From a virus: 64,000 nucleotides of DNA. Within the stretch, counting starts at the first letter, position 1. Each line of letters starts with the position of its first letter. Positions 1 through 15,031 of the stretch are shown piece after piece. The notes beneath the pieces are model-generated. The model was not told the DNA's origin, ran no database searches, and saw nothing but the letters and a program-made list of their open reading frames with translations. A program made the position numbers and the translations under genes. Location of the stretch: the IMG/VR virus record IMGVR_UViG_3300020204_000006; one strand, 5' to 3'.

Positions 1-600
1 ATTGAAGGTATTTGGAACCCTTCTTTAAAAGACTTTGTTGACTCCAGAAATATAAATAATTATTACACTGGCAGATTAAGTACTTTTAATCCAAGAGCAG
101 AAACTGTTGTCGCATCAAATTTTTCAGACGAATTTGCAAAAAAATCCTATGAGTTATTATCTAAGACATTTAATGCAAAAAACTTTTTTATTAATCTTTC
201 ATCATCAGACAGTTCAAAATTTGGATTTTCTAATCTTGCCATCAAAGAAAACGGTATTTCTTTAGACATTTTTTCTGGTTGGACTGGCATAGATTATAAT
301 AAAAATTATAATGTTCTTTTTAGAGACGGATTGTATGAAAAGCCATTTTTTTCATCTATTATAAAATTTAATTCAAATTCTATATCTTCATTAGAAAACT
401 CTTTAATATCAAATTTGCTTAGTGGTGATTTCTCTTTAATAGTTCAGGATGCTAATGGGAAGGAAATAGTTAGAGGTTCAACAAGACAATCTGGACAGTC
501 TTATTCTGTTGTTCCCAAGCCAGATTTATCTGGTGGTATATCTGTTGCCATTAAAAGAGGATCTATTTCTCAAAGGATTTCTATAAGAGGAGTGCAATAA
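1..600 (+). CDS. Hypothetical protein, 5'-truncated by the window (>=199 aa)
   Basis: Frame 1 is open from base 1 (IEGIWNPSLKDFVDSRNINNYYTGRLSTFNP...) through the track's TTG at 331 to TAA at 598-600, so the listed 89-aa ORF is only the C-terminal part. Confidence 0.8.
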   Translation: MEGIWNPSLKDFVDSRNINNYYTGRLSTFNPRAETVVASNFSDEFAKKSYELLSKTFNAKNFFINLSSSDSSKFGFSNLAIKENGISLDIFSGWTGIDYNKNYNVLFRDGLYEKPFFSSIIKFNSNSISSLENSLISNLLSGDFSLIVQDANGKEIVRGSTRQSGQSYSVVPKPDLSGGISVAIKRGSISQRISIRGVQ

Positions 601-606
601 TAAATT

Positions 607-1605
607 ATGGCAATTAGATCTATACCAGATAAAGTTGGAAATTTTTCACAAGGAACTTCCAATGCAATTTTTTTGAAAACATATTCTCCCACTGGAGAAG
701 CTGAGGACATACAGAGTCCAAGTATAACTATAACTGATTCATCTAATGATGAGATAGTTCATGCATCAGCTACAAAAGCTGGTGATGGGTTTTATTTTTA
801 TGAATGGGTAATTGCCAGAGATCAGCAAGAGGGAGAATATTCGATAGAGTGGAGTTATTTAAGTGACGGTAATGTTTCTTATGTTTATCAGACTGCAGTA
901 GTAACAAACGCACCTTCTATATCAAATGCATACTTTGGTTTTGTTGCAGATTTAAAGACTAGCCTAGAATACCATTTAAGGGCTCCCATGAATATACCTG
1001 TTTATAAAGAAGAGGGCAGGCCTGTTGATAATTATACTACTTATAAATTTGCTTTTCCTAGATGGAATCAGTATCAGGGAGTAAAAGTTTATAGGAATCA
1101 AGAATTAATTCAAGATGGATTTTCTATAGATTTTTTTCATGGTAAAATAATATTTGATGTTCCAAATACAGAATATGATATTGTAAACTGTGATTATAAT
1201 TTTAGGTGGTTCTCTGATCCACAACTTATGGTTTTTCTTAATAATGGCGTACAAAGAATGAATATGTATCCGCCTGTTTGTTATCATTCCCTTGAAAGAA
1301 TGCCATCTAGATTTATTCCTATAGTTATATATTCGGCTGTTGTTGATGCTTTGCGCGAAATGATGTTATCGATACAGTTTCAGGAGCCTCAGCTTATTTT
1401 TGGATCTATAGAAAGATCTCAAAGTGTATTTGGTAATTTTGATACTTTAAAGAAAAATTACGAAGAAACCCTTAAGGGTATGTTGGATGCAAAAAAGTTT
1501 GGACCATATACTGGTCTTACTAGAATGGTCGTTGTTCCTGAGTATACTTTGCCAGGTGGTCGAAGTAGATATTTCAGATATTTATTTACAGGGTCTAACG
1601 TATGA
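607..1605 (+). CDS. Probable head-tail neck/adaptor protein with N-terminal Ig-like domain
   Basis: N-terminal beta-rich segment (GDGFYFYEW...GEYSIEWSY). The C-terminal helical part FSDPQLMVFLNNGVQRMNMYPP...YSAVVDALREM resembles neck/adaptor proteins of large phages. Its position precedes the tail genes. Confidence 0.55.
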   Translation: MAIRSIPDKVGNFSQGTSNAIFLKTYSPTGEAEDIQSPSITITDSSNDEIVHASATKAGDGFYFYEWVIARDQQEGEYSIEWSYLSDGNVSYVYQTAVVTNAPSISNAYFGFVADLKTSLEYHLRAPMNIPVYKEEGRPVDNYTTYKFAFPRWNQYQGVKVYRNQELIQDGFSIDFFHGKIIFDVPNTEYDIVNCDYNFRWFSDPQLMVFLNNGVQRMNMYPPVCYHSLERMPSRFIPIVIYSAVVDALREMMLSIQFQEPQLIFGSIERSQSVFGNFDTLKKNYEETLKGMLDAKKFGPYTGLTRMVVVPEYTLPGGRSRYFRYLFTGSNV

Positions 1606-1892
1606 TTGATAAAAATAAATTAAGATTGGCTATTATGGATCCCAAGGTTACTTTTTTTGTTTTACCAAAAAGTTCTTTAATAGAAATGATAGTAAGAGGT
1701 GAAAACAATATAGTAAACAGCTTGCCTCTTGACTTAAAGACTGTTTTCCTTTCTAAAAAAGGTTTGGCAATAGAAAATGCTATGGTCGAAAAATATATTA
1801 ATGATACAATTGACGAAAAGCACAAGCTAATATTAGATAATTGTGAAATTAGAGTATTTCAAAAGACCGTAGAAGTTTCTGGAAAAAAATGA
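1602..1892 (+). CDS. Hypothetical protein (96 aa)
   Basis: ATGA overlaps on both sides and composition like neighbours. No motif recognised. Confidence 0.7.
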   Translation: MIDKNKLRLAIMDPKVTFFVLPKSSLIEMIVRGENNIVNSLPLDLKTVFLSKKGLAIENAMVEKYINDTIDEKHKLILDNCEIRVFQKTVEVSGKK

Positions 1893-2311
1893 CTAATAGA
1901 ACAAAAGAGAATAAAAAATTGGTATTCAAAAATTACGGCGAATATCTTTATATGACAAGAAATTTGAGCAATCATCAAAAGGTTATGATTTTTGACAGTT
2001 TATCTCGAGATGAAAAAAAATCTTTAGAAAAAGCTCTTGTTGAAGAGGGCTGGGATGATTTAATATGGCAGAATGAGATAGACTACAAAATAGATCTTAT
2101 AAAAAAAATATTTGGCAGAGATGTAATAGATCTTAAAATAAAAGTTCTAAAAGGTAAAAAAATTAGAATGAAAACTAGTGTTTGGGAAAGAATAGTTGAA
2201 GAATTCAAGTCGGTCCCAGACTCCATGAAAAATCATATTTTTTCTGGCTTACAGTTCAAGATAGATAGAAATGATTTGCATTTTGGTATACTTCAGAAGG
2301 GAAAAAGATAA
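1889..2311 (+). CDS. Hypothetical basic protein (140 aa)
   Basis: Coupled to both neighbours (ATGA, TAATG). No motif recognised. Confidence 0.75.
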   Translation: MTNRTKENKKLVFKNYGEYLYMTRNLSNHQKVMIFDSLSRDEKKSLEKALVEEGWDDLIWQNEIDYKIDLIKKIFGRDVIDLKIKVLKGKKIRMKTSVWERIVEEFKSVPDSMKNHIFSGLQFKIDRNDLHFGILQKGKR

Positions 2312-3024
2312 TGAGTAAAAAAAATAAAAAGTCCGCGTCCAATTCTGGCAATACTCCTGTAAATGGAAGCGGTTGCTATTCTTTTATAACTCCTAAAACT
2401 CAAGAGCAGGCAGATGCACTTAAAACTATAGATACTAATACAATATCATTTTTATATGGTGTTCCTGGAACTGGAAAAACAACTTTGGCTGTTGGATATG
2501 CTCTAAAAGAGCTTGTAAATTCTAAAATATCTAAAGTTATTATTACAAGACCATACGTTTCTGCTGGAGAAAATCTTGGATATCTTCCTGGAAGTTTAGA
2601 AGAAAAATTTGATCCATTTTTTACTCCAGTCCGTATGTGTATGGAAAAGATAATAGGAAAGTCTCAGTTAAATAAATATTTAAATTTGGGCCACATATTG
2701 GTTCTTCCTGTTGCCTATATGAGAGGTGTTACTTTTGAAAATTGCTGTGTCATCATGGACGAAGCCCAAAATTCGTCAATTGAACAGATGCATCTTGTCC
2801 TTACAAGAGTAGGCCAAAAATGCAAACTTATAATAACTGGAGATGAGTTTCAAACAGATATAAGAACTAAAAAAAATGGCCTTTCTGATGCCATATCTAG
2901 GCTTGGTGGTATTGATAGAATTGGTTTTTATGAATTGTCTGCTATGTCTTGCCAAAGAGATCTTTTGGTCGGAGAGATAGACATTAAATATAAAGGACAG
3001 ATAGATAAAAATAAGAATTTATAA
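2311..3024 (+). CDS. phoH: PhoH-family ATPase/RNA helicase
   Basis: Walker A GVPGTGKT; IITRPYV..GENLGYLPG..EEKFDPF; YMRGVTF....IMDEAQN; LTRVG; ITGD..QTD. This is the full PhoH motif set. Confidence 0.97.
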   Translation: MSKKNKKSASNSGNTPVNGSGCYSFITPKTQEQADALKTIDTNTISFLYGVPGTGKTTLAVGYALKELVNSKISKVIITRPYVSAGENLGYLPGSLEEKFDPFFTPVRMCMEKIIGKSQLNKYLNLGHILVLPVAYMRGVTFENCCVIMDEAQNSSIEQMHLVLTRVGQKCKLIITGDEFQTDIRTKKNGLSDAISRLGGIDRIGFYELSAMSCQRDLLVGEIDIKYKGQIDKNKNL

Positions 3025-3029
3025 GTATT

Positions 3030-5174
3030 ATGAACATAGGTTGTCTATCTAATTCTTTATCAAAAATGGCATCTTTAAATGATGCCCAAAGATTTATATT
3101 TTATAAATATCTTTTAGGTAGCCTATATAGATTTGCTCAGTTTGATGATGATTTTGACGATTCTTCTATCGGTACAGGAACTGTAGATGGTTCTCTTAAA
3201 GGTGATCTTACTCCTGATCTTATAAATAAAGCAGAGCTTATAAAGTCTCTTTCTCTTTCTGGAGATAAGATAGGTTCCGATAGGATTATGAATGAAGTCT
3301 TATCAAGTTCTTTGCTTACAAAAAAACAAAAAAAAGATTTTAAAAAATATGTTATGAGGATTCTTCTTGCTGGTTCTTCTATAGGCGTAGAAGATCAGTC
3401 TAAAGTTCAAGATTCTAACCTTGGATATCAGTCCAAAGATATGTCCAGGTCTTTTTCTTTATTAAAAAGAATAAATAATGAGGTTTCTAGAATTCATCCT
3501 GATATATTTAATATTATTTACAACAAGCAAAATCCATTATATTCAAAATGTAGAAGTGATTTAAGATATGAAAAAAAGCTATCTGAAAAATATTTAGGAA
3601 GTTTGACCGACGTTATCTCGGATGTAGTTTCTGCTCCTGGTTTTACCTATTTTGAGCAGGATCCAAATAGGTTGCAAGAATCTTCTTTTGAGTATTTTTA
3701 TTACAACCCATTCCATATACCCCAAGACGTTAGCAGTACTTTAGCTAACTGTATGGGTTCAAGTAACCCTTCGCCACAAACAGTCTCTAAATGTCTTTGG
3801 AAGAATGCAGACAGGAGATTGATAAGTGACAATTTTACTTCAATAAGAAATGCATGCTTGGAGGAAATGCTTGAAAGAATTATCCGTAAAGAGCCTGCTA
3901 TGATGTGTTTTTTAGTTAGAATGCTTCTTAGGCATACTGATAGAATATTTGCTCAAAAGAAAAGCACTCCAATAAGTTTTGAAACTTTTGAGCAAGTTAA
4001 AAAAAATAAAGAAGATTGTGATTTAATTCATCTTAAATCAGATGTAATAGAAGCATTTACTCCAGATGACAAGGCAGAAGAAGCGAGATTAAATTCAGAA
4101 AAACAAGGTTGTCCTGATTCTTATTTGGTAGAAAAAGGCAAATACGATTCAAGTGAAGACGTCGAGAGAGAAAATAATTTAAAAATAGTTCGTAATTTTT
4201 ATCCTAGTTTCATAGCGCATTTAGAAAGAAAAAAATCAGAACTTGATTTGCTTTTTAGTTACATAATAAACTCAGCTTCTGATGAATCTGTTTACGGAAA
4301 TTTAAAAGATATTTGCAATGATATTAAAAATGATTTAATTGGTGTTATTGATGAAGAGATAGATGCTGTAAAACTAGATATGGATAAGAGTTCATACGGT
4401 ATTGCTGTTTCCATAATAAAGAAGATGCAGATATCTGGTAGTGCAGACTTTATTTCTGAAATTAGAAAAAAGAGCTTTGAATTTAAGGTTAGAATAAAGG
4501 ATCCTGATTCTATTTCAGATCGTGATATTGATATTATATCAGGTATAGATATTTCACTAATGCCATCTTATAATGTTTCTATTGAGGGTGTTCCAGGCTG
4601 GTCAAAAGAAGGTGGTTATGGAAAAATACAGGTTATTAAACAGCAATTTGATATGGCTTACGAAGAATTTTTAAGAGGGTCTATAGCGCGTCTTTCAACA
4701 ATGATGTCCAATCCTGATACTAGAAAAAGAATAATAGGTTGGTATAAAACTGGTACAAGAGGTATAAAGATAAACCCTGTAACTAAAAAAAGATCGATAT
4801 CATCTGATGAAATATATGAGCAATTTTTGAAGGGTTCTTTGACTGGAGATTCACTTAAATCTTATCTTTCAGGCCTTATAACCAGCCGTTCCGGAAATGA
4901 AAATTTAAAACTTTTTCTTGATAAGGTTTCAATTGGTAAGAATTTTGGACAGCAAGTAAAAGAGCTGTCATCTTTTAGGGAAAATTTTAGGTCACTGATA
5001 TCAAAAATATCTAAAGATGCAGAAATGCCACCTTCTGTGGTTGAATCTGGAATGACATTGTTTTCAACTCAAATTTCTTCTGAAGAAAATAAAAAAGAAG
5101 AAAAAACTGCTTGTTTTGATTTTATGTCTCAAGGCTTTTTAATAAAAATGGCTTCATACATAAGGAGCAGGTGA
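3030..5174 (+). CDS. Hypothetical helical protein (714 aa), possibly internal virion protein
   Basis: Long ORF, charged and predicted helical by composition. No catalytic motif recognised. Confidence 0.8.
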   Translation: MNIGCLSNSLSKMASLNDAQRFIFYKYLLGSLYRFAQFDDDFDDSSIGTGTVDGSLKGDLTPDLINKAELIKSLSLSGDKIGSDRIMNEVLSSSLLTKKQKKDFKKYVMRILLAGSSIGVEDQSKVQDSNLGYQSKDMSRSFSLLKRINNEVSRIHPDIFNIIYNKQNPLYSKCRSDLRYEKKLSEKYLGSLTDVISDVVSAPGFTYFEQDPNRLQESSFEYFYYNPFHIPQDVSSTLANCMGSSNPSPQTVSKCLWKNADRRLISDNFTSIRNACLEEMLERIIRKEPAMMCFLVRMLLRHTDRIFAQKKSTPISFETFEQVKKNKEDCDLIHLKSDVIEAFTPDDKAEEARLNSEKQGCPDSYLVEKGKYDSSEDVERENNLKIVRNFYPSFIAHLERKKSELDLLFSYIINSASDESVYGNLKDICNDIKNDLIGVIDEEIDAVKLDMDKSSYGIAVSIIKKMQISGSADFISEIRKKSFEFKVRIKDPDSISDRDIDIISGIDISLMPSYNVSIEGVPGWSKEGGYGKIQVIKQQFDMAYEEFLRGSIARLSTMMSNPDTRKRIIGWYKTGTRGIKINPVTKKRSISSDEIYEQFLKGSLTGDSLKSYLSGLITSRSGNENLKLFLDKVSIGKNFGQQVKELSSFRENFRSLISKISKDAEMPPSVVESGMTLFSTQISSEENKKEEKTACFDFMSQGFLIKMASYIRSR

Positions 5175-5177
5175 TAT

Positions 5178-5354
5178 ATGGTTTTTGTTTGTGTTTGTGA
5201 AAAATGTCATGAACACAGTAGAGATAAAAATCTATCAATAGAGATAAATTTTAGCGACAAGGTAATTTATTTTAAGTGTACTAAATGTGGTCATCTTAAT
5301 TCCATAGAACTAGATAAAAAAAATTTTAAATTACCAAAAGGCAAAGTAATATAA
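5178..5354 (+). CDS. Small Zn-ribbon protein (58 aa), not in the ORF track
   Basis: Manual translation MVFVCVCEKCHEHSRDKNLSIEINFSDKVIYFKCTKCGHLNSIELDKKNFKLPKGKVI has CEKC...CTKCG. It fills the 5175-5353 gap, has AGGAG/GGTGA upstream, and its TAA overlaps the next ATG (TAATG). Confidence 0.85.
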   Translation: MVFVCVCEKCHEHSRDKNLSIEINFSDKVIYFKCTKCGHLNSIELDKKNFKLPKGKVI

Positions 5355-5872
5355 TGTTTTCAATACAAAATAAAAGTGGTAAATACATATCGATAAGCGA
5401 TCTTGGTCTGGTGCTTGCTCCAAAACAGTGCATAGATCTTGATAGAGTTGTTGATAGACATGTTTCTGATTCATCTTCGTGTTTAAAAAAAGCAGTAGAG
5501 ACAAGCATGGTAAAAATATTAAGAAAAGATATTGAGTTAAAAAATATTATAGTTGAAAAAAGAGAAAAGATAGATATAAATTCTGATGAAATTAAAAAAG
5601 AACTAGACTCTTTTAAAAAAGATATAATATCTATTCTTTCAGAAAATCTTAAAAATAATAAAACAGTTGTAATACAACAGGTTTTAGAGAATTCTTCTAA
5701 TTCTGTAGAGACGGATGAAACTCATGCCGATTCTTCTGTTCTCTCTAAACTTCATGAAAAAACCATGGAAAAGATGTTAAAAAATACAGAAATGAACATA
5801 TCCAATTCGTCTAAAGAGGTTAATAATTCTAGTTTGCAAAATAAACTTGATGAGCTTGAGGGCTTGTTGTAA
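5354..5872 (+). CDS. Hypothetical protein with coiled coil, low-complexity linker and C-terminal helix (172 aa)
   Basis: Small N-terminal beta domain (FSIQNKSGKYISISDLGLVL), heptad-like IKKELDSFKKDIISILSENL, S/N/E-rich linker, terminal LQNKLDELEGLL. Confidence 0.8.
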   Translation: MFSIQNKSGKYISISDLGLVLAPKQCIDLDRVVDRHVSDSSSCLKKAVETSMVKILRKDIELKNIIVEKREKIDINSDEIKKELDSFKKDIISILSENLKNNKTVVIQQVLENSSNSVETDETHADSSVLSKLHEKTMEKMLKNTEMNISNSSKEVNNSSLQNKLDELEGLL

Positions 5873-5886
5873 TAAAGGAGAAAATT

Positions 5887-6939
5887 ATGCCATATTCTGG
5901 TTTTGATGTAGGAACAATGTTTTGTCAATGTGCAAAAATAGACAGTAAAAACAAAACTAATATTTCTGTATCAAGAAATTCTTTTGTTGAAATAGAGAAC
6001 GACGGTTCTGATTTAGAAGAAATTTTAAAAAGAAATAGTTGGCAATATGTAAATGATGGTGGAAAGTATTATGTTATAGGAGACGATAGCCTTCAAGTTG
6101 TCAAGCTTTTTCCTAACAAGCTTGATCTTCGTCGTCCCATGCAGGATGGCGTTTTAAATAAGAATGAAGAAAAAAAGAATATAGTTCTTGGAAAAATTAT
6201 TGAAGGCTTACTTGGTAAAGCGCCTAATCAAAATTCTGTTGTTGCTACTTGTATAAGCTCTCCTTGTGTTGATGATTCGCTTAATAGCGAATTTCACGCA
6301 CTTAGATTGAAAAGCATGTTTACTAGACTTGGATGGAAGGTAAAGGTAATAGAGGAAGGTCTAGCTGTAATACTTAATGAAAGACCATCGTGCAAAGATA
6401 ATCTTGGGAATGAGATACCCTATTCTGGAATAGGCATATCTTTTGGTGGAGGAAGAGTTAATTGCGTCTTGGCGTATAAGGGTCTTCAAATAATTGGAAT
6501 GTCTGTTAGTAGATCTGGTGATTGGATTGACAAGCAGGTTTCTTCTCAAACTGGAGCTCCCATTTCTCAAATATTGAGAAAAAAAGAATTTGAGTTAGAT
6601 TTTGAAAACTTGAATGAGGATGATGATATTATATTTGGTCTTTCTACTTATTATGATGTTATGCTAAAGCATGTTTTTGGTCTTTTCGCTAAAAAATTTG
6701 TTGAGGTAAAAACTGAATTTGATATGCCTCTAGATATAGTTGTTGCTGGAGGCACTGCTATGCCAAACGGTTTTGAAACTAGGGTGTCCGATGTTGTGTC
6801 TGGTATGACTCTTCCTTTCAAGATAGGCAATATAAAAAAGAGTCAAGATCCAAGAAATTCAGTTGTTCTTGGATTGCTTGTTCAGGCTGGAATATCTCAA
6901 AGAAAACTTGATAAGGGTCTTTCGGAGGACAGTATCTAA
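5887..6939 (+). CDS. Actin-fold ATPase, volactin-like
   Basis: Phosphate-1 GFDVGT, connect-1 VIEEGLAV, phosphate-2 GISFGGGRVN, adenosine IVVAGGTAMPNGF, connect-2 DPRNSVVLG. Strong RBS AAAGGAG. The motifs RNSFVEIE, VIGDDSL, RRPM..GVL and GDWID match my recollection of haloarchaeal volactin. Confidence 0.9.
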   Translation: MPYSGFDVGTMFCQCAKIDSKNKTNISVSRNSFVEIENDGSDLEEILKRNSWQYVNDGGKYYVIGDDSLQVVKLFPNKLDLRRPMQDGVLNKNEEKKNIVLGKIIEGLLGKAPNQNSVVATCISSPCVDDSLNSEFHALRLKSMFTRLGWKVKVIEEGLAVILNERPSCKDNLGNEIPYSGIGISFGGGRVNCVLAYKGLQIIGMSVSRSGDWIDKQVSSQTGAPISQILRKKEFELDFENLNEDDDIIFGLSTYYDVMLKHVFGLFAKKFVEVKTEFDMPLDIVVAGGTAMPNGFETRVSDVVSGMTLPFKIGNIKKSQDPRNSVVLGLLVQAGISQRKLDKGLSEDSI

Positions 6940-7670
6940 TGGGATATTGCAATAGAACGCTTGTTGAAAGAATAATAGCACAATCTATGACAAGTGCTAC
7001 TATATCCAGCACAAATCATCCTCAAAAAGGCTTGTTGAGAGATTTCGGAAATCAGTTAAATACAAACGTAATATCTCTCGACACACTTAATGAGCACATA
7101 TCCATTGCTGATCAATTTATAAACAGCGTACTTAGTGAAATGTATAAAGTTCCATTAAAAGAGTTTTCTGATTTTGATGTTGATCTTGGTTTAGATATAG
7201 ATGAATACTCTTCTCATATTGTGTTGAGTCGTCCTTGTGCTAATGTATTTAATCCAGGTGACATTATTTTTATAACTAACGGCAATCAGTCGGATAGGTG
7301 TATCGTGTCTTCATATATAAACGAAAACACATTAACTGTTGATCAGCTGCCTTCTGGAAATTATTCTTCATCTGATACAAGAATATTAAGAATAAAATTT
7401 CCTGAACCAATATCAATTACTTCTGCTCGTCTGACTGTATCTTCTATTTATGATAGATATTATTTATCTCAAAGTCAGCTTCAGGGAAATGAATTTTCCA
7501 AAAAAATGAGAGAGCTTGCTAGAGTTGATCTTAATAATATTATTCATGGAAGAGTCATACTTCATGGCCAGCAAAGAATAGGAATGCGCTTTGCTAATCC
7601 AAATCTCAAGGACAGGTATAATCTTCCTTCTGGTGATAGTGATTCAACAAGAGACATTCCAGAAATTTAA
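6939..7670 (+). CDS. Head-tail adaptor, Mu gp36/DUF1320-like, with inserted beta domain
   Basis: MGYC start; ISIADQFINSVLSEMYKVPL; PEPISITSARLTVSSIY; ARVDLNNIIHGRVIL. This is the pattern of gp36-like adaptors. Confidence 0.75.
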   Translation: MGYCNRTLVERIIAQSMTSATISSTNHPQKGLLRDFGNQLNTNVISLDTLNEHISIADQFINSVLSEMYKVPLKEFSDFDVDLGLDIDEYSSHIVLSRPCANVFNPGDIIFITNGNQSDRCIVSSYINENTLTVDQLPSGNYSSSDTRILRIKFPEPISITSARLTVSSIYDRYYLSQSQLQGNEFSKKMRELARVDLNNIIHGRVILHGQQRIGMRFANPNLKDRYNLPSGDSDSTRDIPEI

Positions 7671-7676
7671 TTTTTA

Positions 7677-8573
7677 ATGGAACAAATACTAGATAGCTTA
7701 AAAAAAATTATTTATAGATGGCTTAATACTGAAACTGCAATTACCGAAAATCTGTCATCGGGATCAACTTTAATAAAAGTTGACAGGGCAACCAGATTTA
7801 TGCCTGGTGATGAAATTGCAATTACTGATGGAACAGAATTTGAATTCCCACTTGTAATTCATTCAATAATAGATGAAAATAATATTTTGTTAAAAAGTGA
7901 AACAAAATTTAGTTGGAGTTCTTCAAATGCGTATGTTAAAAAGACAATAGCTGGTCAATTAATCCAGGGTATTTATGTTGGTGACGTTAGCTCAATACCT
8001 AAATTTCCTGCTGTTTTAATAAATGGCGTAAGTAGGTCTAGCGAATGGACTACTCTTGAGAGTACTACAGAAAAATATGAAATTTCTATAACATGTTACG
8101 TTGAAGGCGCAACACAGGAGGACGGTTATAGGTCTCTTTTGAGAATGTCAAATATTATAGATAGGGGTCTTAAGAGGAACGTATTTCCTGTTGTTGGAGA
8201 AATTGGTCCAATCGACGTTATAGATTCTGTTGATATTGGTGATTATTTTATAAGAGTTGATGATACTGATGGTATGGTTAAAAATCAACTTCTAATTATA
8301 GAAGATAAATTCAAAGCTGAGGATGTATCAATAGAAGAAGTAATAGATAGTCAGACAATTAAATTACACAAAAAAGTATTTAATGATTATCCTCTAATAA
8401 ATGATCCCAGGGTTTTAATAGTTAGTAGATTTTTATATAATAGCTGGCCGAAAAATATTAGTTACACTACTGTCCAGAAGGATACACTTCTTAAGGGTGC
8501 AACTATAAACTGGAGCGCAGAGGAGATACAGCTTCAGGGTAGAATCGGATGGGTTGATACTCCTAGGGATTAA
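7677..8573 (+). CDS. Tail terminator / tail completion protein with two inserted beta domains
   Basis: GIYVGDVSSIPKFPAVLI...YEISITCYV......GYRSLLRMSNIIDRGL is typical of lambda gpU/SPP1 gp17-like terminators. Position is between adaptor and tube. Confidence 0.65.
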   Translation: MEQILDSLKKIIYRWLNTETAITENLSSGSTLIKVDRATRFMPGDEIAITDGTEFEFPLVIHSIIDENNILLKSETKFSWSSSNAYVKKTIAGQLIQGIYVGDVSSIPKFPAVLINGVSRSSEWTTLESTTEKYEISITCYVEGATQEDGYRSLLRMSNIIDRGLKRNVFPVVGEIGPIDVIDSVDIGDYFIRVDDTDGMVKNQLLIIEDKFKAEDVSIEEVIDSQTIKLHKKVFNDYPLINDPRVLIVSRFLYNSWPKNISYTTVQKDTLLKGATINWSAEEIQLQGRIGWVDTPRD

Positions 8574-8577
8574 TACT

Positions 8578-9675
8578 ATGAAAACATTGGTAATTGGAGA
8601 GTGTCCTTGGAGAAAAAATCCATTTGGATACTTGGTTAGAAAACTTGTTCATTCTTTAAGTAAGAATTCAGATGTCGTTCTTCTTGCAGAAGGTCATGAT
8701 GCATCTCTTTTTGGTGATGGTCAAAAAAGCCTGATAAAAAATGAAGATTTTCATGAAATAGAAGTAATTGGTATAAATAATGATGTTTCAAAATCTTCTA
8801 TTATTTTGTATGAAATATATAAAGCTTGGAATTTTGATATTATAATTACCGTTGGGCATCTTGCTAAATTTGAATGGGTTGATGCTTTTTTTAATTTTTC
8901 TCAAAGTGATGCAAGATGGGGAGCTATAGTACCAGAAAATTTTCAAAATAATTATGTTATAAGTGAAAATCTGGATTCAATATGTTCTTTTAATGTATCT
9001 ACAAATTTTAATGAAGTTGACAATTTTAGTATATATCCTGAGCTTATTTGGGGCGAAGATTTTTCGTATGAAAATTCCATCAGTTCTAACTCTGTTTATA
9101 AAATAGGACTAATTGGAGAAAATACAATATTGTCAAATTTTCACATATGTGAAAGTTTAAAAAAAGATTTTAATTTTACTTATTTTTCATCCGTTAATCA
9201 AAGAAGTTATTATTCAGAAGAGCAATTAAAAGGAATGGGAGTGTCAATATACCCTGGCTTTAGAATGCATAATTTTTGGGACAATGATAGTGCATTCATA
9301 GATTTTGTAAATTCAAATGACGGTTTTATAATTTTAGATGATGTTCCTGATTTTGGTTATTATTCTTACGTTATATCTAAGACAAATAAGCCATTAATAT
9401 CCTCCTGTTCAAGGTTAAAATGTGGAATAAAACATGCATATGTTTCTGCCATTACTTTGCCATCAAATAACGTTTATCTTGATAAATATCATATATTTAA
9501 TAATACTTCTGAAATAATTCTTAATTTTGATATAAAATATGTAAAATCTGAGTCAGAATTTAGTTTAAAAAAAGGGGATTGTATAAATACTGTTGAATTA
9601 TTTATTGATATGCAGAGTAAATTATTTACAAAAGCTAAAAGGATAAAGGAATTAAGGTTGGAAATACATAAATAA
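8578..9675 (+). CDS. GT-B fold glycosyltransferase-like protein (degenerate GT4)
   Basis: N-terminal MKTLVIGECPW...GYLVRKLVHSL; FDIIITVGH; C-terminal PDFGY.....KTNKPLISS echoing EGFG.P..EA...GKPVI. I prefer ATG 8578 over the track start 8554, which overlaps the previous gene. Confidence 0.55.
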   Translation: MKTLVIGECPWRKNPFGYLVRKLVHSLSKNSDVVLLAEGHDASLFGDGQKSLIKNEDFHEIEVIGINNDVSKSSIILYEIYKAWNFDIIITVGHLAKFEWVDAFFNFSQSDARWGAIVPENFQNNYVISENLDSICSFNVSTNFNEVDNFSIYPELIWGEDFSYENSISSNSVYKIGLIGENTILSNFHICESLKKDFNFTYFSSVNQRSYYSEEQLKGMGVSIYPGFRMHNFWDNDSAFIDFVNSNDGFIILDDVPDFGYYSYVISKTNKPLISSCSRLKCGIKHAYVSAITLPSNNVYLDKYHIFNNTSEIILNFDIKYVKSESEFSLKKGDCINTVELFIDMQSKLFTKAKRIKELRLEIHK

Positions 9676-9692
9676 TTCAACGGGAGAGCAAA

Positions 9693-10061
9693 ATGGCAGT
9701 ATTAGAAGCACAAATTTATCTAACAATAGCAAATAACATAGCGACAGCAAGAGACAATATTGTTTCGGTTGTTGACAATTTTTATAGTAATGTTTATGAG
9801 ATAGTTTTGCTAGACGACATACAGCAGACTCTTGATCTGCTCGAGCCAATGTATAGTGCATATACTGTTTCTGATACAAGCTTGAGAACAATTACTCTTT
9901 ATCAGACTGCTATTTCTGCACTTAATAATCATATTCTGACAAGAGGTGGGTATTCTAATATAAACCAGTATCTTGCTGCAGAGGGTATAGATGTTCCTCA
10001 AACGTTCGCAGATTTGTCAAGTTTAGCTGGGTTCCCCATCGATGCATCTAATATTTCATAA
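9693..10061 (+). CDS. Hypothetical helical protein, probably virion-associated (122 aa)
   Basis: RBS GGAGAG upstream. Lies directly before the tube gene. No motif recognised. Confidence 0.8.
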   Translation: MAVLEAQIYLTIANNIATARDNIVSVVDNFYSNVYEIVLLDDIQQTLDLLEPMYSAYTVSDTSLRTITLYQTAISALNNHILTRGGYSNINQYLAAEGIDVPQTFADLSSLAGFPIDASNIS

Positions 10062-10081
10062 AATCAATTCAGAGGTAAATC

Positions 10082-11125
10082 ATGGCAGGTGATTCATTCG
10101 GCATTCCATCGTCGTTAACATATCCTGGATACGCAGGATTCAGTGGTATTGTTGACTACAATAATACCACATTTAGAGTTGAAAACTGTAGCGTCAAGGC
10201 CCAGCAGAATATAGAGCCCATAGAGGACGTTGACGGTGCAGCTTCTCATGGTCGTTTTTTACTTGCCCCCTTAACCATATCTGGTGATGTAAATTTTAAA
10301 TTTGACATATTCTCAACTGGTAGTGGAGATGGTGGCAATGGATATCAGGCTGCTTTACAATTTTTAGAAGACGCTTATGGAAGAGATGCCGAAACAGGTA
10401 ATTTGCGTGCTCGTCTTATTAATAGAATTTTGAATGTCAGATATCACGGTGGTTTTAATTACGAATATCACGGTATATTAATTAACACTCTAAGAATGAG
10501 CATATCTGCTGGTCAGGCAGTGGAAATAAGTGCTAATCTTAAAGGTATTTCTAGAACAAAAAATAATACTGCTCAATCCAAGAATGTTGAGTCTGCTGGT
10601 ATGCTTGCCCCAGTTCGTGTTGCAACTTACAATGACGTTCAAATGGTTTTAGAGGACAATCAATCAGATTCTCCAAGTCAGATTTTTGATTCTTCTTGTT
10701 TTCTTGTTAGAGACTTTAACATGTCTATAGATAATGGGGTGCAAGATATACATACACTCGGTGGAAGACTTCGTCCATATGATCTTGTTGCTGGTAAAAG
10801 AAAGGTTAGTGGTTCATTTAAGCTTTTAAGTAATCCAGGAACAAACGCTCTAAGACAATACATACAGGACCACGAAAAGAGAGCTGTATCTAGACTTAAA
10901 ATGACATTAAATCTTAACAAGGGAATTACTGGTTTTCAGCCTTTTATGATTTTGCCAGGTGTCGTTCCGTCTCTTGAAGATGTAACAGTAACTCCATCAA
11001 ATGTTGTAGAACTTTCATTTAATTACCAGGCTTTCGGTGCAGACAATCATACAAGCCCATTCCAGAACGTAACTTTTCCTGATGTATCAGAAGAAAAGGG
11101 CTATTTCCCATTCCCAGGAATTTGA
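10082..11125 (+). CDS. Major tail tube protein
   Basis: RBS AGAGGT. FNMSIDNGVQDIHTLGG..RPYDLVAGKRKVSGSFKL is a typical tube-protein segment. Followed by chaperones and tape measure. Confidence 0.8.
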   Translation: MAGDSFGIPSSLTYPGYAGFSGIVDYNNTTFRVENCSVKAQQNIEPIEDVDGAASHGRFLLAPLTISGDVNFKFDIFSTGSGDGGNGYQAALQFLEDAYGRDAETGNLRARLINRILNVRYHGGFNYEYHGILINTLRMSISAGQAVEISANLKGISRTKNNTAQSKNVESAGMLAPVRVATYNDVQMVLEDNQSDSPSQIFDSSCFLVRDFNMSIDNGVQDIHTLGGRLRPYDLVAGKRKVSGSFKLLSNPGTNALRQYIQDHEKRAVSRLKMTLNLNKGITGFQPFMILPGVVPSLEDVTVTPSNVVELSFNYQAFGADNHTSPFQNVTFPDVSEEKGYFPFPGI

Positions 11126-11140
11126 CGACATATACTTTAT

Positions 11141-11719
11141 ATGTCGGATTCCTCTGAAGATGTTATAGTTATCCCTGTACTTATCAACAAAGAAAATGAT
11201 TTTTTTGTTATAAATTGTTATTGGAAAAAAATAGATACAGATATTGTTAGGAAGTATTACTCTAGTAATAAAAAATTTTGTTATATTGAATGTAAGATAA
11301 AAATTGACTCTGAATCTTTTGAATTATTTTGTATCAAAAATTTTTTTGTAAAAGCTATTATAAATGGAGAAGATTCAGAGATAAGCTCTAGTAACTTCTT
11401 AAAATTAGATCCAATGATTGGTAAAAGTATAATGCAATCTTATGTAGATTATTTCAATAGTGTTGATAAAGATCAGAGTGGAAGCAATTATTCTAAATTA
11501 ATAGATTCAATAAAAGGTAAATTTTCTTCTGATGTAGATATATTTACAAAAATATGTTATTTATCTGTCTCTACAGGAATGAGAATTGATTATTTGGAGT
11601 CTCTTGATTCCATACTTGTAGATAAATTATATGATATATCTCTTATAAAAGAAAACTTTAAAAATATAGACATTATAAATGCCATGAGTATCATGGCTGG
11701 TGGTAAATCGGTACTTTAA
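11141..11719 (+). CDS. Probable tail assembly chaperone paralogue with C-terminal extension (GT-like)
   Basis: INGEDSEISSSNFLKLDPMIGKSIM aligns with ENGNPVPVNKENIDKMEPVLANAIL of the next gene. Extra C-terminal helical segment (ICYLSVSTGMRIDYLESLD). Confidence 0.5.
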   Translation: MSDSSEDVIVIPVLINKENDFFVINCYWKKIDTDIVRKYYSSNKKFCYIECKIKIDSESFELFCIKNFFVKAIINGEDSEISSSNFLKLDPMIGKSIMQSYVDYFNSVDKDQSGSNYSKLIDSIKGKFSSDVDIFTKICYLSVSTGMRIDYLESLDSILVDKLYDISLIKENFKNIDIINAMSIMAGGKSVL

Positions 11720-11730
11720 AAGGAGGTAAA

Positions 11731-12114
11731 ATGAAGCTTTTTATTAGTGAAAATGATAATATGGATGCAAGTTTGTATGTGGGCTACAAAGATGGTAAGT
11801 TATTTGTTTTTGATACAGATCAGGAGGCAAAAACTTTCTTTAATAAAGACAAATTCTCAAAAATAGACTTTTCTTTTAAAAAGTTAGATTTTGGTTCTTC
11901 TAGAAAGATACAAGAGAAAAGTATAGTTAATAGAGATGGTAATATGACTTTTGATATACTTTCATTTAGATATGAAAGGCTTATTAGTAGTATTAAATCA
12001 TGGAGTATTGCAGACGAAAATGGCAATCCTGTGCCAGTAAATAAGGAAAATATAGATAAAATGGAGCCTGTTTTGGCAAATGCCATACTAGGTTTATGCG
12101 ACAAATTAATGTAA
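11731..12114 (+). CDS. Tail assembly chaperone
   Basis: IKSWSIADENGNPVPVNKENIDKM is a classic TAC motif. Strong RBS AAGGAGGT. Immediately upstream of the tape measure gene. Confidence 0.8.
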   Translation: MKLFISENDNMDASLYVGYKDGKLFVFDTDQEAKTFFNKDKFSKIDFSFKKLDFGSSRKIQEKSIVNRDGNMTFDILSFRYERLISSIKSWSIADENGNPVPVNKENIDKMEPVLANAILGLCDKLM

Positions 12115-12136
12115 TTAAGTATTAAGGAGTTTTACC

Positions 12137-15031
12137 TTGGCTGAATTCGGAGAAGAATTAATTAAATTCTTAAATAGTATTGGCGTTAATATTACTCAGT
12201 TTGACAAGCTTGTGCAAACTGCTCAGCAATTTAACGTAGTGCTTATAGATTTAGAAAGAACTGGTAATCTATATGGCAAAAGCCTTAAAACAGTAAGAGA
12301 CGAACTAAACGCAATTTCAGTAAATTTTGCAACTACACAAAATGTAGCAAAGCAATATTATCAGCTACTTCACGAGCTTCAGGGTATTGCAATTAAAGAT
12401 TCTAAAGACCAGCTTGCTGTTCTTCAGCTTGTGCGTGATGCATATGGTCCTGATGAGCAGCAAATGCAACAGGGTATTCAACTTCTGCAAAAATTAATAT
12501 CATCTAATTCTGATCAGCAAAATCAAATAGTCAGGATTATACAGCTTAAAAAAATGGCAATGGATGGAGACAAAGGTGCAATAAAGCTTCTTGAGGAGCA
12601 GGGTGATAGACTGGCAAGAAATGCTAGTCTATTTGCATTACTTGGAAATGAATCTGGTAAAACTCGTGAAGAGATAGGTGCAATGATGCAGTTTGCCAAA
12701 GCACAAACTGAAGAAGATCCACTTGGAGAAATTGCAAGAAAATTCAATCAAGCTCAAATGCAAATAAGAAATACTCCAGCAGTTTTTCAGAATATGATTG
12801 CTCAAATAGATAGTGAAAAGGGAAAAATTACTCAAGTAATGCAGGGTATACAGTCCGTTTTTTCCGGCGCTGGTGCCGCAATAAATGAAACCATTTTGAA
12901 TATGTATGGTGAATCTGGTGTTGGAAAAGCAGGAGAAACAGCTGAAGAAAAAGCAGAACGCGAATCAAAGCTTTCGGCATCTCTTATAGGAGGCTCTAAA
13001 AAACTTCAAATGGATGCTGCCTCTAAAGTTTCTGCTTTAGAGACTTCAACTTTAAGTGGTAATTTAGATGAGGCAAAGGCAGCTAAGGATTCCTTGGACG
13101 CTTTCGTTGAAGAGCAAAAAAAATCAATAATAGAACAACTAAAAAATAAATTAACTGCGATTGGTATGGATGAAAAACTTGCTCAAGACCAAGCAGAACA
13201 AGATGCTCAAAAAATAGTTGAGCTTTCTGGTGTACAGAGATCTGCTTCACTTGTCACAAAGTTTGAAGAGCAAAAAAAGTATGCTCAAGAACAACTTCCT
13301 GAGCTCAGCAGACAAATAGAAGAAAAAAAGAAAGAACTGGCTGCCATTCAGGCAAATGTAGAAGAAAATAAAATGGGAGGTTTATATAATCCACAAGCCC
13401 AAGCCCAAATAAATGAAGATCAAGCAAGAATAGCTGCGCTTTCAGCTGCTATTGAGGCTGCAAAGCAGATTGAAGCCGAACTTGATAAGCAAGCAAAAAT
13501 GGATTTTAGGTCATATACTGAAAGATCAAGAAAACTTCAAGTTGACGATTTGATAATTAAATCCATTCAGGATCAAAATAGAGAGCTTGAGAAGCAATTT
13601 GGCACAATGAGAGGGCTGAATTCTGCAACTGCATCAATATTAAAATTACAGGGAGAACTTGGAGGAGCTTCTGCTTACAGTAATGATGCTGCAAGAACTT
13701 TTAATGAACTTCAAAAACAATCTATGGACTATCTAGGTGGACAAATTGAAGCAAGTAGGCGTTCATACGAAGAGATTTCAAGATTTAATAAGTTGGTTTC
13801 TGAGGCAAAAACTGGAAGTCCAGAATCTGCAAAAATGCTTGCTGAGGAGTCAATTAAAGTAGGTCAGTCTCAAATAGCTGAATTACGAAAATCTCTTCCT
13901 GGTGCAAGTGATGAACAGAAACCTCAGATAGAGGCTAGTATTAAGTACATAGAAGAAAGAATGGCAAGAGCAAATGCCGTTATAGCAGGCGGTGGTAAAG
14001 AGGCCATATCTGAAATGCTTAGAGATACTTCTGAGCTTGTCGATGCTGGAATGAAAAAGGCAGCAGAGGCTGTTGCAAATTCAGTTGAAAATATAAGAAA
14101 ATCTATTGAAAATGCAAGGGCTCCTGCAAAAGAAATTACTTCTCAGCTTCAAGCGCAAAAAGAAGTACTTGATGCACAGGTTAGTATAGCTGATAATCTT
14201 GTTACTGGTCTTGGCGCTTCTGCTGAAATGAGGATGGCTCAAGCTGCAAATAGTATGGAGCAGGCAAAATCCATGCAAAATGAGCTTATTTCCATGCAGC
14301 AACAAAGAGCGGAAGTGGAAAAGAAAATAGCTGAAGGCGGAGACACCGATGGCAGATTAAGAAGAGAAGTAATGGACATAAGGAGGCAAGAAAATAGTCT
14401 TGCCGCCCAGATACTTCAGAAGCAAAAGGAAAGTTTAGATTCGGTTAAAATGCTTCGTGAGGGTTATTTGAATGCTATAAGCGCAATGGAGTCTGGAAGT
14501 GGAGTTTTTATGGAAATGGTTGTTACTCAGGAAAAAGGCCTTGGCTCTTTAATTAGAAATATTAGAGAAGTTCCTAGAGTTCTTAATACTGGTACGACCG
14601 TTGGTCCAGGAGCAGAAAAAGGTGTTTTTGGTATTGGTGGTCTCATGGGCGGAACAACTGGAGCCAGAGGTGAGTATGACAATAATCTTATGATAAATTC
14701 TGCCCAAGATTTGTCAAAAACGACTCAAATGCTTTCTGCTGCCGTTGAGCGTTTTTCTTCTGCTCTTCCTAATATGAGTGCTTTAGGTTTTGAGGGCAAT
14801 AAATTCCAGGGTGCTTTCGTGGCTGGTGAAACAGGACCCACAACGGCCCTAGGTGCTCGTCAGGCTTCTTCTGCTATGCAGTCTGCTGATCTGGCTTCCT
14901 CTTTTAAGGATGCCCTTGGAGACCAAATGCGTCCACTTGCTGAAGTATTTAAAAATGGGCTTGAGACTGTGTTTAAAAGTGCTTTTGATGAATTCAGGAA
15001 AGAAATATCGGATATGATAGGGAGCAGATAA
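12137..15031 (+). CDS. Tape measure protein (964 aa, TTG start)
   Basis: A/Q/E/K-rich helical composition throughout. RBS AAGGAG before TTG. Syntenic position after the chaperones. Confidence 0.85.
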   Translation: MAEFGEELIKFLNSIGVNITQFDKLVQTAQQFNVVLIDLERTGNLYGKSLKTVRDELNAISVNFATTQNVAKQYYQLLHELQGIAIKDSKDQLAVLQLVRDAYGPDEQQMQQGIQLLQKLISSNSDQQNQIVRIIQLKKMAMDGDKGAIKLLEEQGDRLARNASLFALLGNESGKTREEIGAMMQFAKAQTEEDPLGEIARKFNQAQMQIRNTPAVFQNMIAQIDSEKGKITQVMQGIQSVFSGAGAAINETILNMYGESGVGKAGETAEEKAERESKLSASLIGGSKKLQMDAASKVSALETSTLSGNLDEAKAAKDSLDAFVEEQKKSIIEQLKNKLTAIGMDEKLAQDQAEQDAQKIVELSGVQRSASLVTKFEEQKKYAQEQLPELSRQIEEKKKELAAIQANVEENKMGGLYNPQAQAQINEDQARIAALSAAIEAAKQIEAELDKQAKMDFRSYTERSRKLQVDDLIIKSIQDQNRELEKQFGTMRGLNSATASILKLQGELGGASAYSNDAARTFNELQKQSMDYLGGQIEASRRSYEEISRFNKLVSEAKTGSPESAKMLAEESIKVGQSQIAELRKSLPGASDEQKPQIEASIKYIEERMARANAVIAGGGKEAISEMLRDTSELVDAGMKKAAEAVANSVENIRKSIENARAPAKEITSQLQAQKEVLDAQVSIADNLVTGLGASAEMRMAQAANSMEQAKSMQNELISMQQQRAEVEKKIAEGGDTDGRLRREVMDIRRQENSLAAQILQKQKESLDSVKMLREGYLNAISAMESGSGVFMEMVVTQEKGLGSLIRNIREVPRVLNTGTTVGPGAEKGVFGIGGLMGGTTGARGEYDNNLMINSAQDLSKTTQMLSAAVERFSSALPNMSALGFEGNKFQGAFVAGETGPTTALGARQASSAMQSADLASSFKDALGDQMRPLAEVFKNGLETVFKSAFDEFRKEISDMIGSR

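Follow-up and report, generated by a model that had tools for sequence, protein, structure and literature searches.

The window analysed here is a DNA of 64,000 nucleotides (nt) from a virus, record IMGVR_UViG_3300020204_000006 of IMG/VR. Positions 5178–6939 contain a cassette of three tightly coupled genes, which code in this order for a zinc ribbon, a small adaptor protein and an actin of the volactin family. The three genes have been inherited together throughout a clade of huge phages from lake water. On balance we believe, with moderate confidence, that they form a phage volactin filament system: the tail of the adaptor would dock on the actin, while its N-terminal domain, perhaps together with the zinc ribbon, would bind a cargo which is likelier to be a protein than DNA. 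The features of the cassette, with protein lengths in amino acids (aa), are the following:

5178–5354, + strand: zinc-ribbon protein, 58 aa, with cysteines C7/C10 and C34/C37 arranged as CxxC...CxxC, coupled to the adaptor
5354–5872, + strand: adaptor, 172 aa, with an N-domain, a helix, linkers and a C-terminal helix, as seen in alignments A1 and A4 and in an AlphaFold2 (AF2) model
5354–5527, + strand: N-domain of the adaptor, residues 1–58, beta-rich, with a predicted local distance difference test score (pLDDT) of about 85; putative cargo-binding end
5582–5659, + strand: helix of the adaptor, residues 77–102, a helix in the AF2 model whose hydrophobic residues have a heptad-like 3-4 spacing; it may be a dimerising coiled coil
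5846–5869, + strand: C-terminal tail of the adaptor, residues 165–172, LDELEGLL, the best-conserved segment of its family; putative actin-docking peptide
5887–6939, + strand: actin, 350 aa, volactin family (Pfam PF25216 Volactin)

The layout is very compact. The stop of the upstream open reading frame (ORF), of 714 aa, is separated by 3 nt from the start of the zinc-ribbon gene, which has an AAGGAG sequence 10 nt on its 5' side (5162–5167). The ATG of the adaptor overlaps the zinc-ribbon stop in the sequence TAATG at 5352–5356. From the adaptor stop to the actin start there are 14 nt, the actin has its own AAGGAG at 5875–5880, and its stop shares 1 base with the start of the following ORF, of 243 aa. 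All three are genuine genes, and their translation is coupled. The original prediction, made from the letters of the window and a list of its ORFs, had given the same three ORFs, the TAATG coupling and the 14-nt spacing, and all of them are found exactly where it placed them. It had also claimed that there is no centromere-like array in the neighbourhood: our search of positions 1–12200 agrees, since no centromere-like repeat family or tandem array was found there beyond chance. No cluster of inverted repeats is present within 6 kb of the cassette. Promoter-like sites in the window are no more numerous than in shuffled sequence and none is specific to the cassette. Terminator-like sites are 8, for 3.6 expected; all are within genes or on the opposite strand, and none is found in the gaps of the cassette.

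The original prediction compared the actin with those of the ParM/AlfA type, to which it does not belong. The Pfam scan gives no match to the ParM family and assigns the protein to Volactin (PF25216), with 194.9 bits (gathering cut-off 35) and E = 3.2e-57 over residues 4–334 of 350; matches to MreB_Mbl and Actin stay below threshold. A search with the actin profile in the Protein Data Bank (PDB) finds only MamK (E = 6e-7) and MreB, nothing closer. Judging from these comparisons it is a genuine actin-fold protein of the volactin family. The motifs DxGT (phosphate-1), SFGxG (phosphate-2), GGT (adenosine) and GDWID, together with residue E157, are invariant in the 149 non-identical family members compared, the window included. 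In the phosphate-2 loop (residues 181–189, GISFGGG) a Ser replaces the canonical Asp. This is the case for all 149 members, cellular and viral, so that by this alignment the Ser is a trait of the whole volactin family and not of the phage copies. The volactin of Haloferax volcanii (VolA, HVO_2015) belongs to the same PF25216 family and has the same SFGxG loop. It forms dynamic filaments in vivo and acts in the cell-shape transition; its authors consider its binding factors unknown (PMC10869688). The archaeal cellular loci which we have retrieved have 32–38% identity to the phage actin.

The adaptor is a protein with two well differentiated ends. In the AF2 model residues 1–57 are folded (the region of pLDDT about 85), residues 77–102 form a helix and residues 127–171 a long helix which ends in LDELEGLL; the linkers at 60–74 and 103–124 have low confidence. 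This agrees with the anatomy originally proposed: N-domain, coiled-coil helix, linker and terminal helix. The hydrophobic residues of the 77–102 helix, as read from the sequence, are spaced I80-L84-F87-I91-I94-L99. The terminal helix, singled out from the beginning, turns out to be the best-conserved part of the family: in 149 adaptor representatives conservation reaches 3.1 bits per column over the last 8 positions, compared with 2.2 over the N-domain and 1.15 over the middle. A motif (E/D)L-x-x-L(L/I) or DLL-x-x-L is found within the last ten residues in 141 of them, and E167, L168 and E169 are invariant in alignment A1. The best-conserved motif of the N-domain is acidic (DLD). Of 1.84 billion clusters searched with a profile, 555 representative ones belong to this family, and for 373 the match is at E<=1e-10. 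Their members are nearly all full-length, with 135–344 aa, mostly 165–260 aa. The Pfam scan gives no match for the adaptor, and a fold search in PDB finds only generic long-helix matches and a weak match to YqbF (E = 0.18).

The conservation of the cassette was studied in loci retrieved in two steps: the actin gave 17 viral loci, and an alignment of those gave 259 loci, of which 80 were kept. All 33 distinct relatives of the close clade, which have 52–65% actin identity, carry the adaptor gene upstream of that of the actin. The zinc ribbon precedes the adaptor in each of the 31 loci which contain that DNA; the other two end at the contig edge. A wider synteny is found in L001–L013 and extends to the 33 close relatives: PhoH comes first, then a large ORF, the zinc ribbon, the adaptor, the actin, the 243-aa gene, a 298-aa gene and, further on, the tail tube. 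Searches in the reverse direction return the same cassette. Five adaptor homologues were looked up blind: a volactin gene is found directly on the 3' side in the three which have informative contigs, and in one of the two uninformative cases a zinc ribbon is found upstream. Four zinc-ribbon homologues were looked up as well, and after each of them come an adaptor-family gene and then the actin. Since the arrangement recurs in every related locus, it is far beyond chance. The neighbourhood comparison proposed with the original prediction thus sustains part of its claims: the order of the three genes is kept across the close clade, the actin has in the 172-aa protein a partner of its own (in the phages, in the Planctomycetota loci described below and in the blind-picked homologues), and the zinc ribbon co-occurs strictly with the adaptor–actin pair in the phage clade.

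Some loci of the clade have insertions. A homing endonuclease of 270 aa of the LAGLIDADG type (Pfam LAGLIDADG_2, E = 6e-18) is placed exactly between adaptor and actin in L007 (5169–5993) and L010 (5166–5981). Similar ORFs are present in L005 and L011, and in L028 and L032 the gap between adaptor and actin has 726–836 nt. By their sequence these inserts are selfish elements which leave the cassette intact. Weaker LAGLIDADG signals are also found in L185, in the ORFs which flank the cassette. In a viral contig of 187 kb (L054, 3270–4561) both adaptor and actin are frameshifted into several short ORFs, either by an assembly error or as a decaying copy.

The 58-aa protein is by its model a zinc ribbon, with two CxxC knuckles which flank a three-stranded sheet. 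The AF2 prediction (pLDDT 78) has strands at 21–24, 29–33 and 40–44, and the four cysteines C7, C10, C34 and C37 are invariant across the 10 homologues of alignment A2. The best matches in a fold search are generic zinc ribbons (Elf1, Rpb9, Rpp21, ZPR1), all with E>0.1. A profile search finds 61 homologous clusters of 57–87 aa. Among the volactin loci compared it is found only in the phage clade. Neither the zinc ribbon nor the adaptor matches a DNA-binding family in Pfam or PHROG. A search for proteins in which both are fused found none, which is weak evidence.

The position of the cassette is constant in the close clade: it lies between PhoH plus a large variable ORF on one side and putative neck and tail genes on the other. 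In the window these neighbours are:

2311–3024, + strand: PhoH-like ATPase (Pfam PhoH, E = 4e-62), a conserved landmark upstream of the cassette, syntenic in related loci
3030–5174, + strand: 714-aa ORF, in the slot between PhoH and the zinc ribbon, kept by position and not by sequence
6939–7670, + strand: 243-aa gene, putative head-tail joining protein, whose start overlaps the actin stop
10082–11125, + strand: tail tube protein (Pfam Phage_tube_2, E = 1e-13; PHROG minor tail protein)
12137–15031, + strand: 964-aa ORF, probable tape-measure gene, called by its size and its position after the tail tube

The tail tube gene nearby places the cassette in an array of virion structural genes, and this neighbourhood suggests that it acts together with virion assembly. 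The 243-aa gene has 38–52% identity and synteny in all close loci. Neither its product nor the 298-aa protein downstream has a PHROG match or a solved relative. The 714-aa ORF has no match in Pfam or PHROG, and jackhmmer finds no homologue of it in any retrieved locus. Its slot is filled elsewhere by ORFs of 783–1185 aa and is empty in L186: it would appear that this ORF either has evolved unusually fast or has been replaced. The probable tape measure is followed at 15031–62226 by giant co-directional ORFs of 1536, 1279, 1278, 3706, 2830, 1859 and 1220 aa, presumably exceptionally large baseplate or fibre proteins.

The window is part of a huge uncultured phage, because its own adaptor cluster is found on contigs up to 196 kb and related loci on viral contigs up to 494–498 kb. 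Its long ORFs are all on the + strand and its G+C content is about 31%. Identical DNA occurs in lake-water metagenomes, on one contig of 48.8 kb and in 18 more runs, which possibly belong to one campaign. A search of known phages with the DNA gives no match to the window; with the proteins only two uncultured phages are found, of 485–595 kb and with 26–29% identity. No RNA dataset is listed as carrying DNA of the window; run X20, with only four contigs of 151–206 bases, is probably DNA.

The same adaptor family is found outside the phages. In 11 loci from metagenome-assembled genomes of Planctomycetota it lies directly upstream of the actin, with the same N-domain, a coiled coil and a tail which ends in ...ADLLSNL. 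Two of these loci were checked (L099, L122) and have a cellular context, with a tetratricopeptide repeat (TPR) protein and a histidine kinase or molybdopterin-domain gene nearby. The TPR protein, of 626–668 aa, comes directly after the adaptor–actin pair (L099, 3380–7138; L122, 2455–6148) and may be a third cellular component in Planctomycetota. In a FastTree phylogeny of 149 actins the phage clade and the adaptor-bearing Planctomycetota form one split, with a Shimodaira–Hasegawa-like support of 97; the adaptor family which they have in common speaks independently for this link. By these comparisons the adaptor–actin pair is shown to be an older two-gene module, common to phages and cellular Planctomycetota.

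The N-domain also occurs by itself. It recurs in other viral proteins, among them gp158 of Bacillus phage G, detected both with a hidden Markov model (E = 2.7e-6) and with Foldseek in BFVD (E = 3.6e-5). This protein has a basic low-complexity C-terminus in place of the adaptor tail, and no actin was found within the 50 kb of phage G which were examined. Phage G, a cultured phage of 498 kb, has in fact two N-domain proteins, gp158 and gp163 (L183, 4298–4810 and 8372–8830), one of them beside the PhoH gene; no adaptor-type tail was found in either. A literature search on gp158 gave nothing relevant. In the window there is no second copy of the N-domain. The presence in phage G of an N-domain with neither tail nor detected actin suggests that this domain binds something common to large phages, while the tail would be the actin-specific part.

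Other subclades of the family have different partners upstream of the volactin gene. In Patescibacteria (L129, L146, L161) it is a MarR-like winged-helix protein, and the partners in Nitrospirota (L138, L144, L147) have N-terminal sequences similar to that winged helix. Archaeoglobaceae (L112–L119, L135–L137) have a membrane protein with DUF7139. A neighbour of the H. volcanii volactin is HVO_2016, which is CdpA-like (PMC12126565); as a CdpA-like DUF7139 protein also lies directly upstream in Archaeoglobaceae, a partner gene beside the actin is a habit of the family. Another group of Planctomycetota (L156–L177) has coiled-coil partners of 250–400 aa which end in ...NLARLKKLKGGG, and two further viral classes of upstream partners are found. 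In a separate viral clade (L059, L064, L069, L074, L076, L091, L097 and others) there is an 80-aa partner just upstream of position 4001, whose end has the form W-x-I-P-x-F ... F-G-K-K, with a GT9-like glycosyltransferase nearby. The type of partner follows the actin subclade, with 17 changes on the tree compared with 96.5 for shuffled labels. Many of these partners have an amphipathic helix at their end. A tail motif defined post hoc is present in 41% of upstream ORFs compared with 15%; this enrichment is only a lead, because the loci are not independent. A docking rule common to volactin partners is only a hypothesis, since the resemblance of the tails is too short for significance.

In the filament system which we favour the actin would polymerise in an ATP-dependent way, as the H. 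volcanii volactin. The acidic-hydrophobic C-terminal helix of the adaptor (...LDELEGLL) would plug into the actin, most likely in its IA/IIA hydrophobic groove, the way ParR binds ParM and arcadin-2 binds crenactin. The adaptor may dimerise by its central helix, the beta-rich N-terminal domain would bind the cargo, and the zinc ribbon, whose synthesis is tied to that of the adaptor by the overlapping stop and start, may take part in the binding. The filaments would keep in place or transport a component of the phage. As cargo, a structure made of phage proteins (capsid, neck or some other part of the virion) is more likely than DNA, because of the location in a structural array, the absence of repeat arrays nearby and the lack of a recognisable DNA-binding fold. 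Compared with Haloferax, the phage actin lies inside virion genes, its partner belongs to another family and is a soluble adaptor with two ends, and a zinc ribbon has been added.

A role in DNA positioning or partition, of the ParMRC or AlpAC type, has to be considered: the zinc ribbon, the N-domain or both would bind phage DNA, and the filaments would transport or tether phage genomes which replicate or are in a plasmid state. Zinc ribbons often bind nucleic acids, and the Patescibacteria volactins have winged-helix partners. In prophage CGP3 of Corynebacterium AlpA, encoded upstream of the actin gene and co-transcribed with it, links phage DNA to AlpC filaments; it binds the alpS repeats in its own promoter, and the alpAC operon is early (PMC4446434). 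Our cassette resembles AlpAC by its co-oriented adaptor gene directly upstream of a phage actin, the same order as alpA-alpC. It differs by its actin family, by the lack of repeats nearby and of any DNA-binding signature, and by its coupling to the structural genes in which it is embedded, which is not an early or replication locus. It shares with ParMRC and AlfAB an actin with a small adaptor, and ParR docks by its C-terminal tail in the groove of ParM (cited in PMC5173319). However, parM precedes parR, our actin is not a ParM and the required centromere array is absent. Furthermore ParR and AlfB are ribbon-helix-helix DNA binders, whereas the model of our adaptor has a beta-rich N-domain, whose best-conserved motif is acidic. 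Repeat arrays and clusters of inverted repeats are absent within 6 kb, neither small protein matches a DNA-binding family, and we regard DNA positioning as quite improbable.

The adaptor could also be a regulator of the filament which sequesters, depolymerises, caps or nucleates it, in the way of arcadin-2 or thymosin-beta4. Its C-terminal helix would compete for the groove of the actin, and the N-domain would do no more than adjust this activity or direct it to a place. Arcadin-2, which depolymerises crenactin, has the same architecture: a linker which is not conserved is followed by a conserved C-terminal helix, by which the protein docks in the hydrophobic groove as ParR does (PMC5173319). 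In both proteins the helix is conserved and the linker variable, their genes are clustered with the actin, and the conservation of the tail fits a regulator equally well. On the other hand no sequence relationship is detected, the adaptor tail is acidic and lacks the key Trp, and arcadin-2 belongs to a cellular archaeal cluster. We consider a pure regulator unlikely: the N-domain is itself well conserved and is autonomous in phage proteins for which no actin was found, such as gp158, which implies a second binding activity, and other volactin partners carry evident anchoring modules, such as a winged helix or a membrane domain. The actin fold is also common to Hsp70, and the actin might form no filaments at all and act as an assembly chaperone ATPase for the giant virion proteins, with the two small proteins as co-chaperones. 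Very large structural ORFs adjoin the cassette and the Ser of the phosphate-2 loop is unusual. Yet this Ser is common to cellular archaeal, bacterial and viral members, the H. volcanii volactin does form filaments, and the nearest solved relatives, MamK and MreB, are filament formers and not Hsp70. A chaperone is thus very hard to believe in.

Several points weigh against the filament system as we propose it. We infer the docking of the tail on the actin by its likeness to ParR and arcadin-2. The zinc ribbon could bind nucleic acid, as these domains often do, and the fold of the N-domain gives no clue to its function. The neck identity of the downstream genes is based on their position and on a Pfam match to Phage_Mu_Gp36 below cut-off (E = 0.006). 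The split of phages and Planctomycetota joins two long branches, and such joins are flagged as unreliable. When the adaptor of the window type is compared by profile–profile alignment with two other partner classes, only the tails align, with E = 0.14, which is not significant; the phage tail is acidic and the tails of the other classes are basic, so that a single common docking mode is not assured. Finally, filament formation is established only for the distant homologue of H. volcanii (PMC10869688).

A search of the literature found no description of this cassette, and two jumbo-phage reviews, of 2021 and of 2026, do not mention phage actins. To our knowledge, the cytoskeletons described in phages are tubulins (PhuZ/TubZ) and, in a few cases, actins like ParM or AlpC which act on DNA; we know of no dedicated docking adaptor of this kind for PhuZ. 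The cassette shares with the PhuZ spindle the presence of a cytoskeletal polymer gene in a very large phage, and PhuZ organises virion production (PMC8314001, PMC9067925). It differs by its actin fold, which is not that of tubulin; PhuZ is found in Chimalliviridae, and the window shows no sign of that lineage. A bolder proposal, possible but which we hold only tentatively, is that huge phages run their own actin cytoskeleton in virion assembly, an actin counterpart of the PhuZ spindle, with the N-domain and the zinc ribbon gripping capsids or neck complexes. The volactin family as a whole would then follow a plug-in rule: a short C-terminal helix carried by interchangeable cargo modules (DNA-binding, membrane or virion-binding) which are encoded just upstream of the actin.

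In this clade of phages, whose contigs reach about 0.5 Mb, a core gene beside the structural genes codes for an actin of a family which received its name only in 2024, and the dedicated partner family of this actin, with 555 sequence clusters, had no annotation. Phage G offers a culturable handle on the function of the N-domain. The link with Planctomycetota hints that these phages have exchanged genes with bacteria whose cell plans are complex. If the docking of the tail is true, a peptide of 8–17 residues would be a testable handle on volactin filaments in general, and the adaptors would be candidates for the volactin-binding factors missing in the Haloferax work. It would also open a route to how giant virions are organised in the cell.

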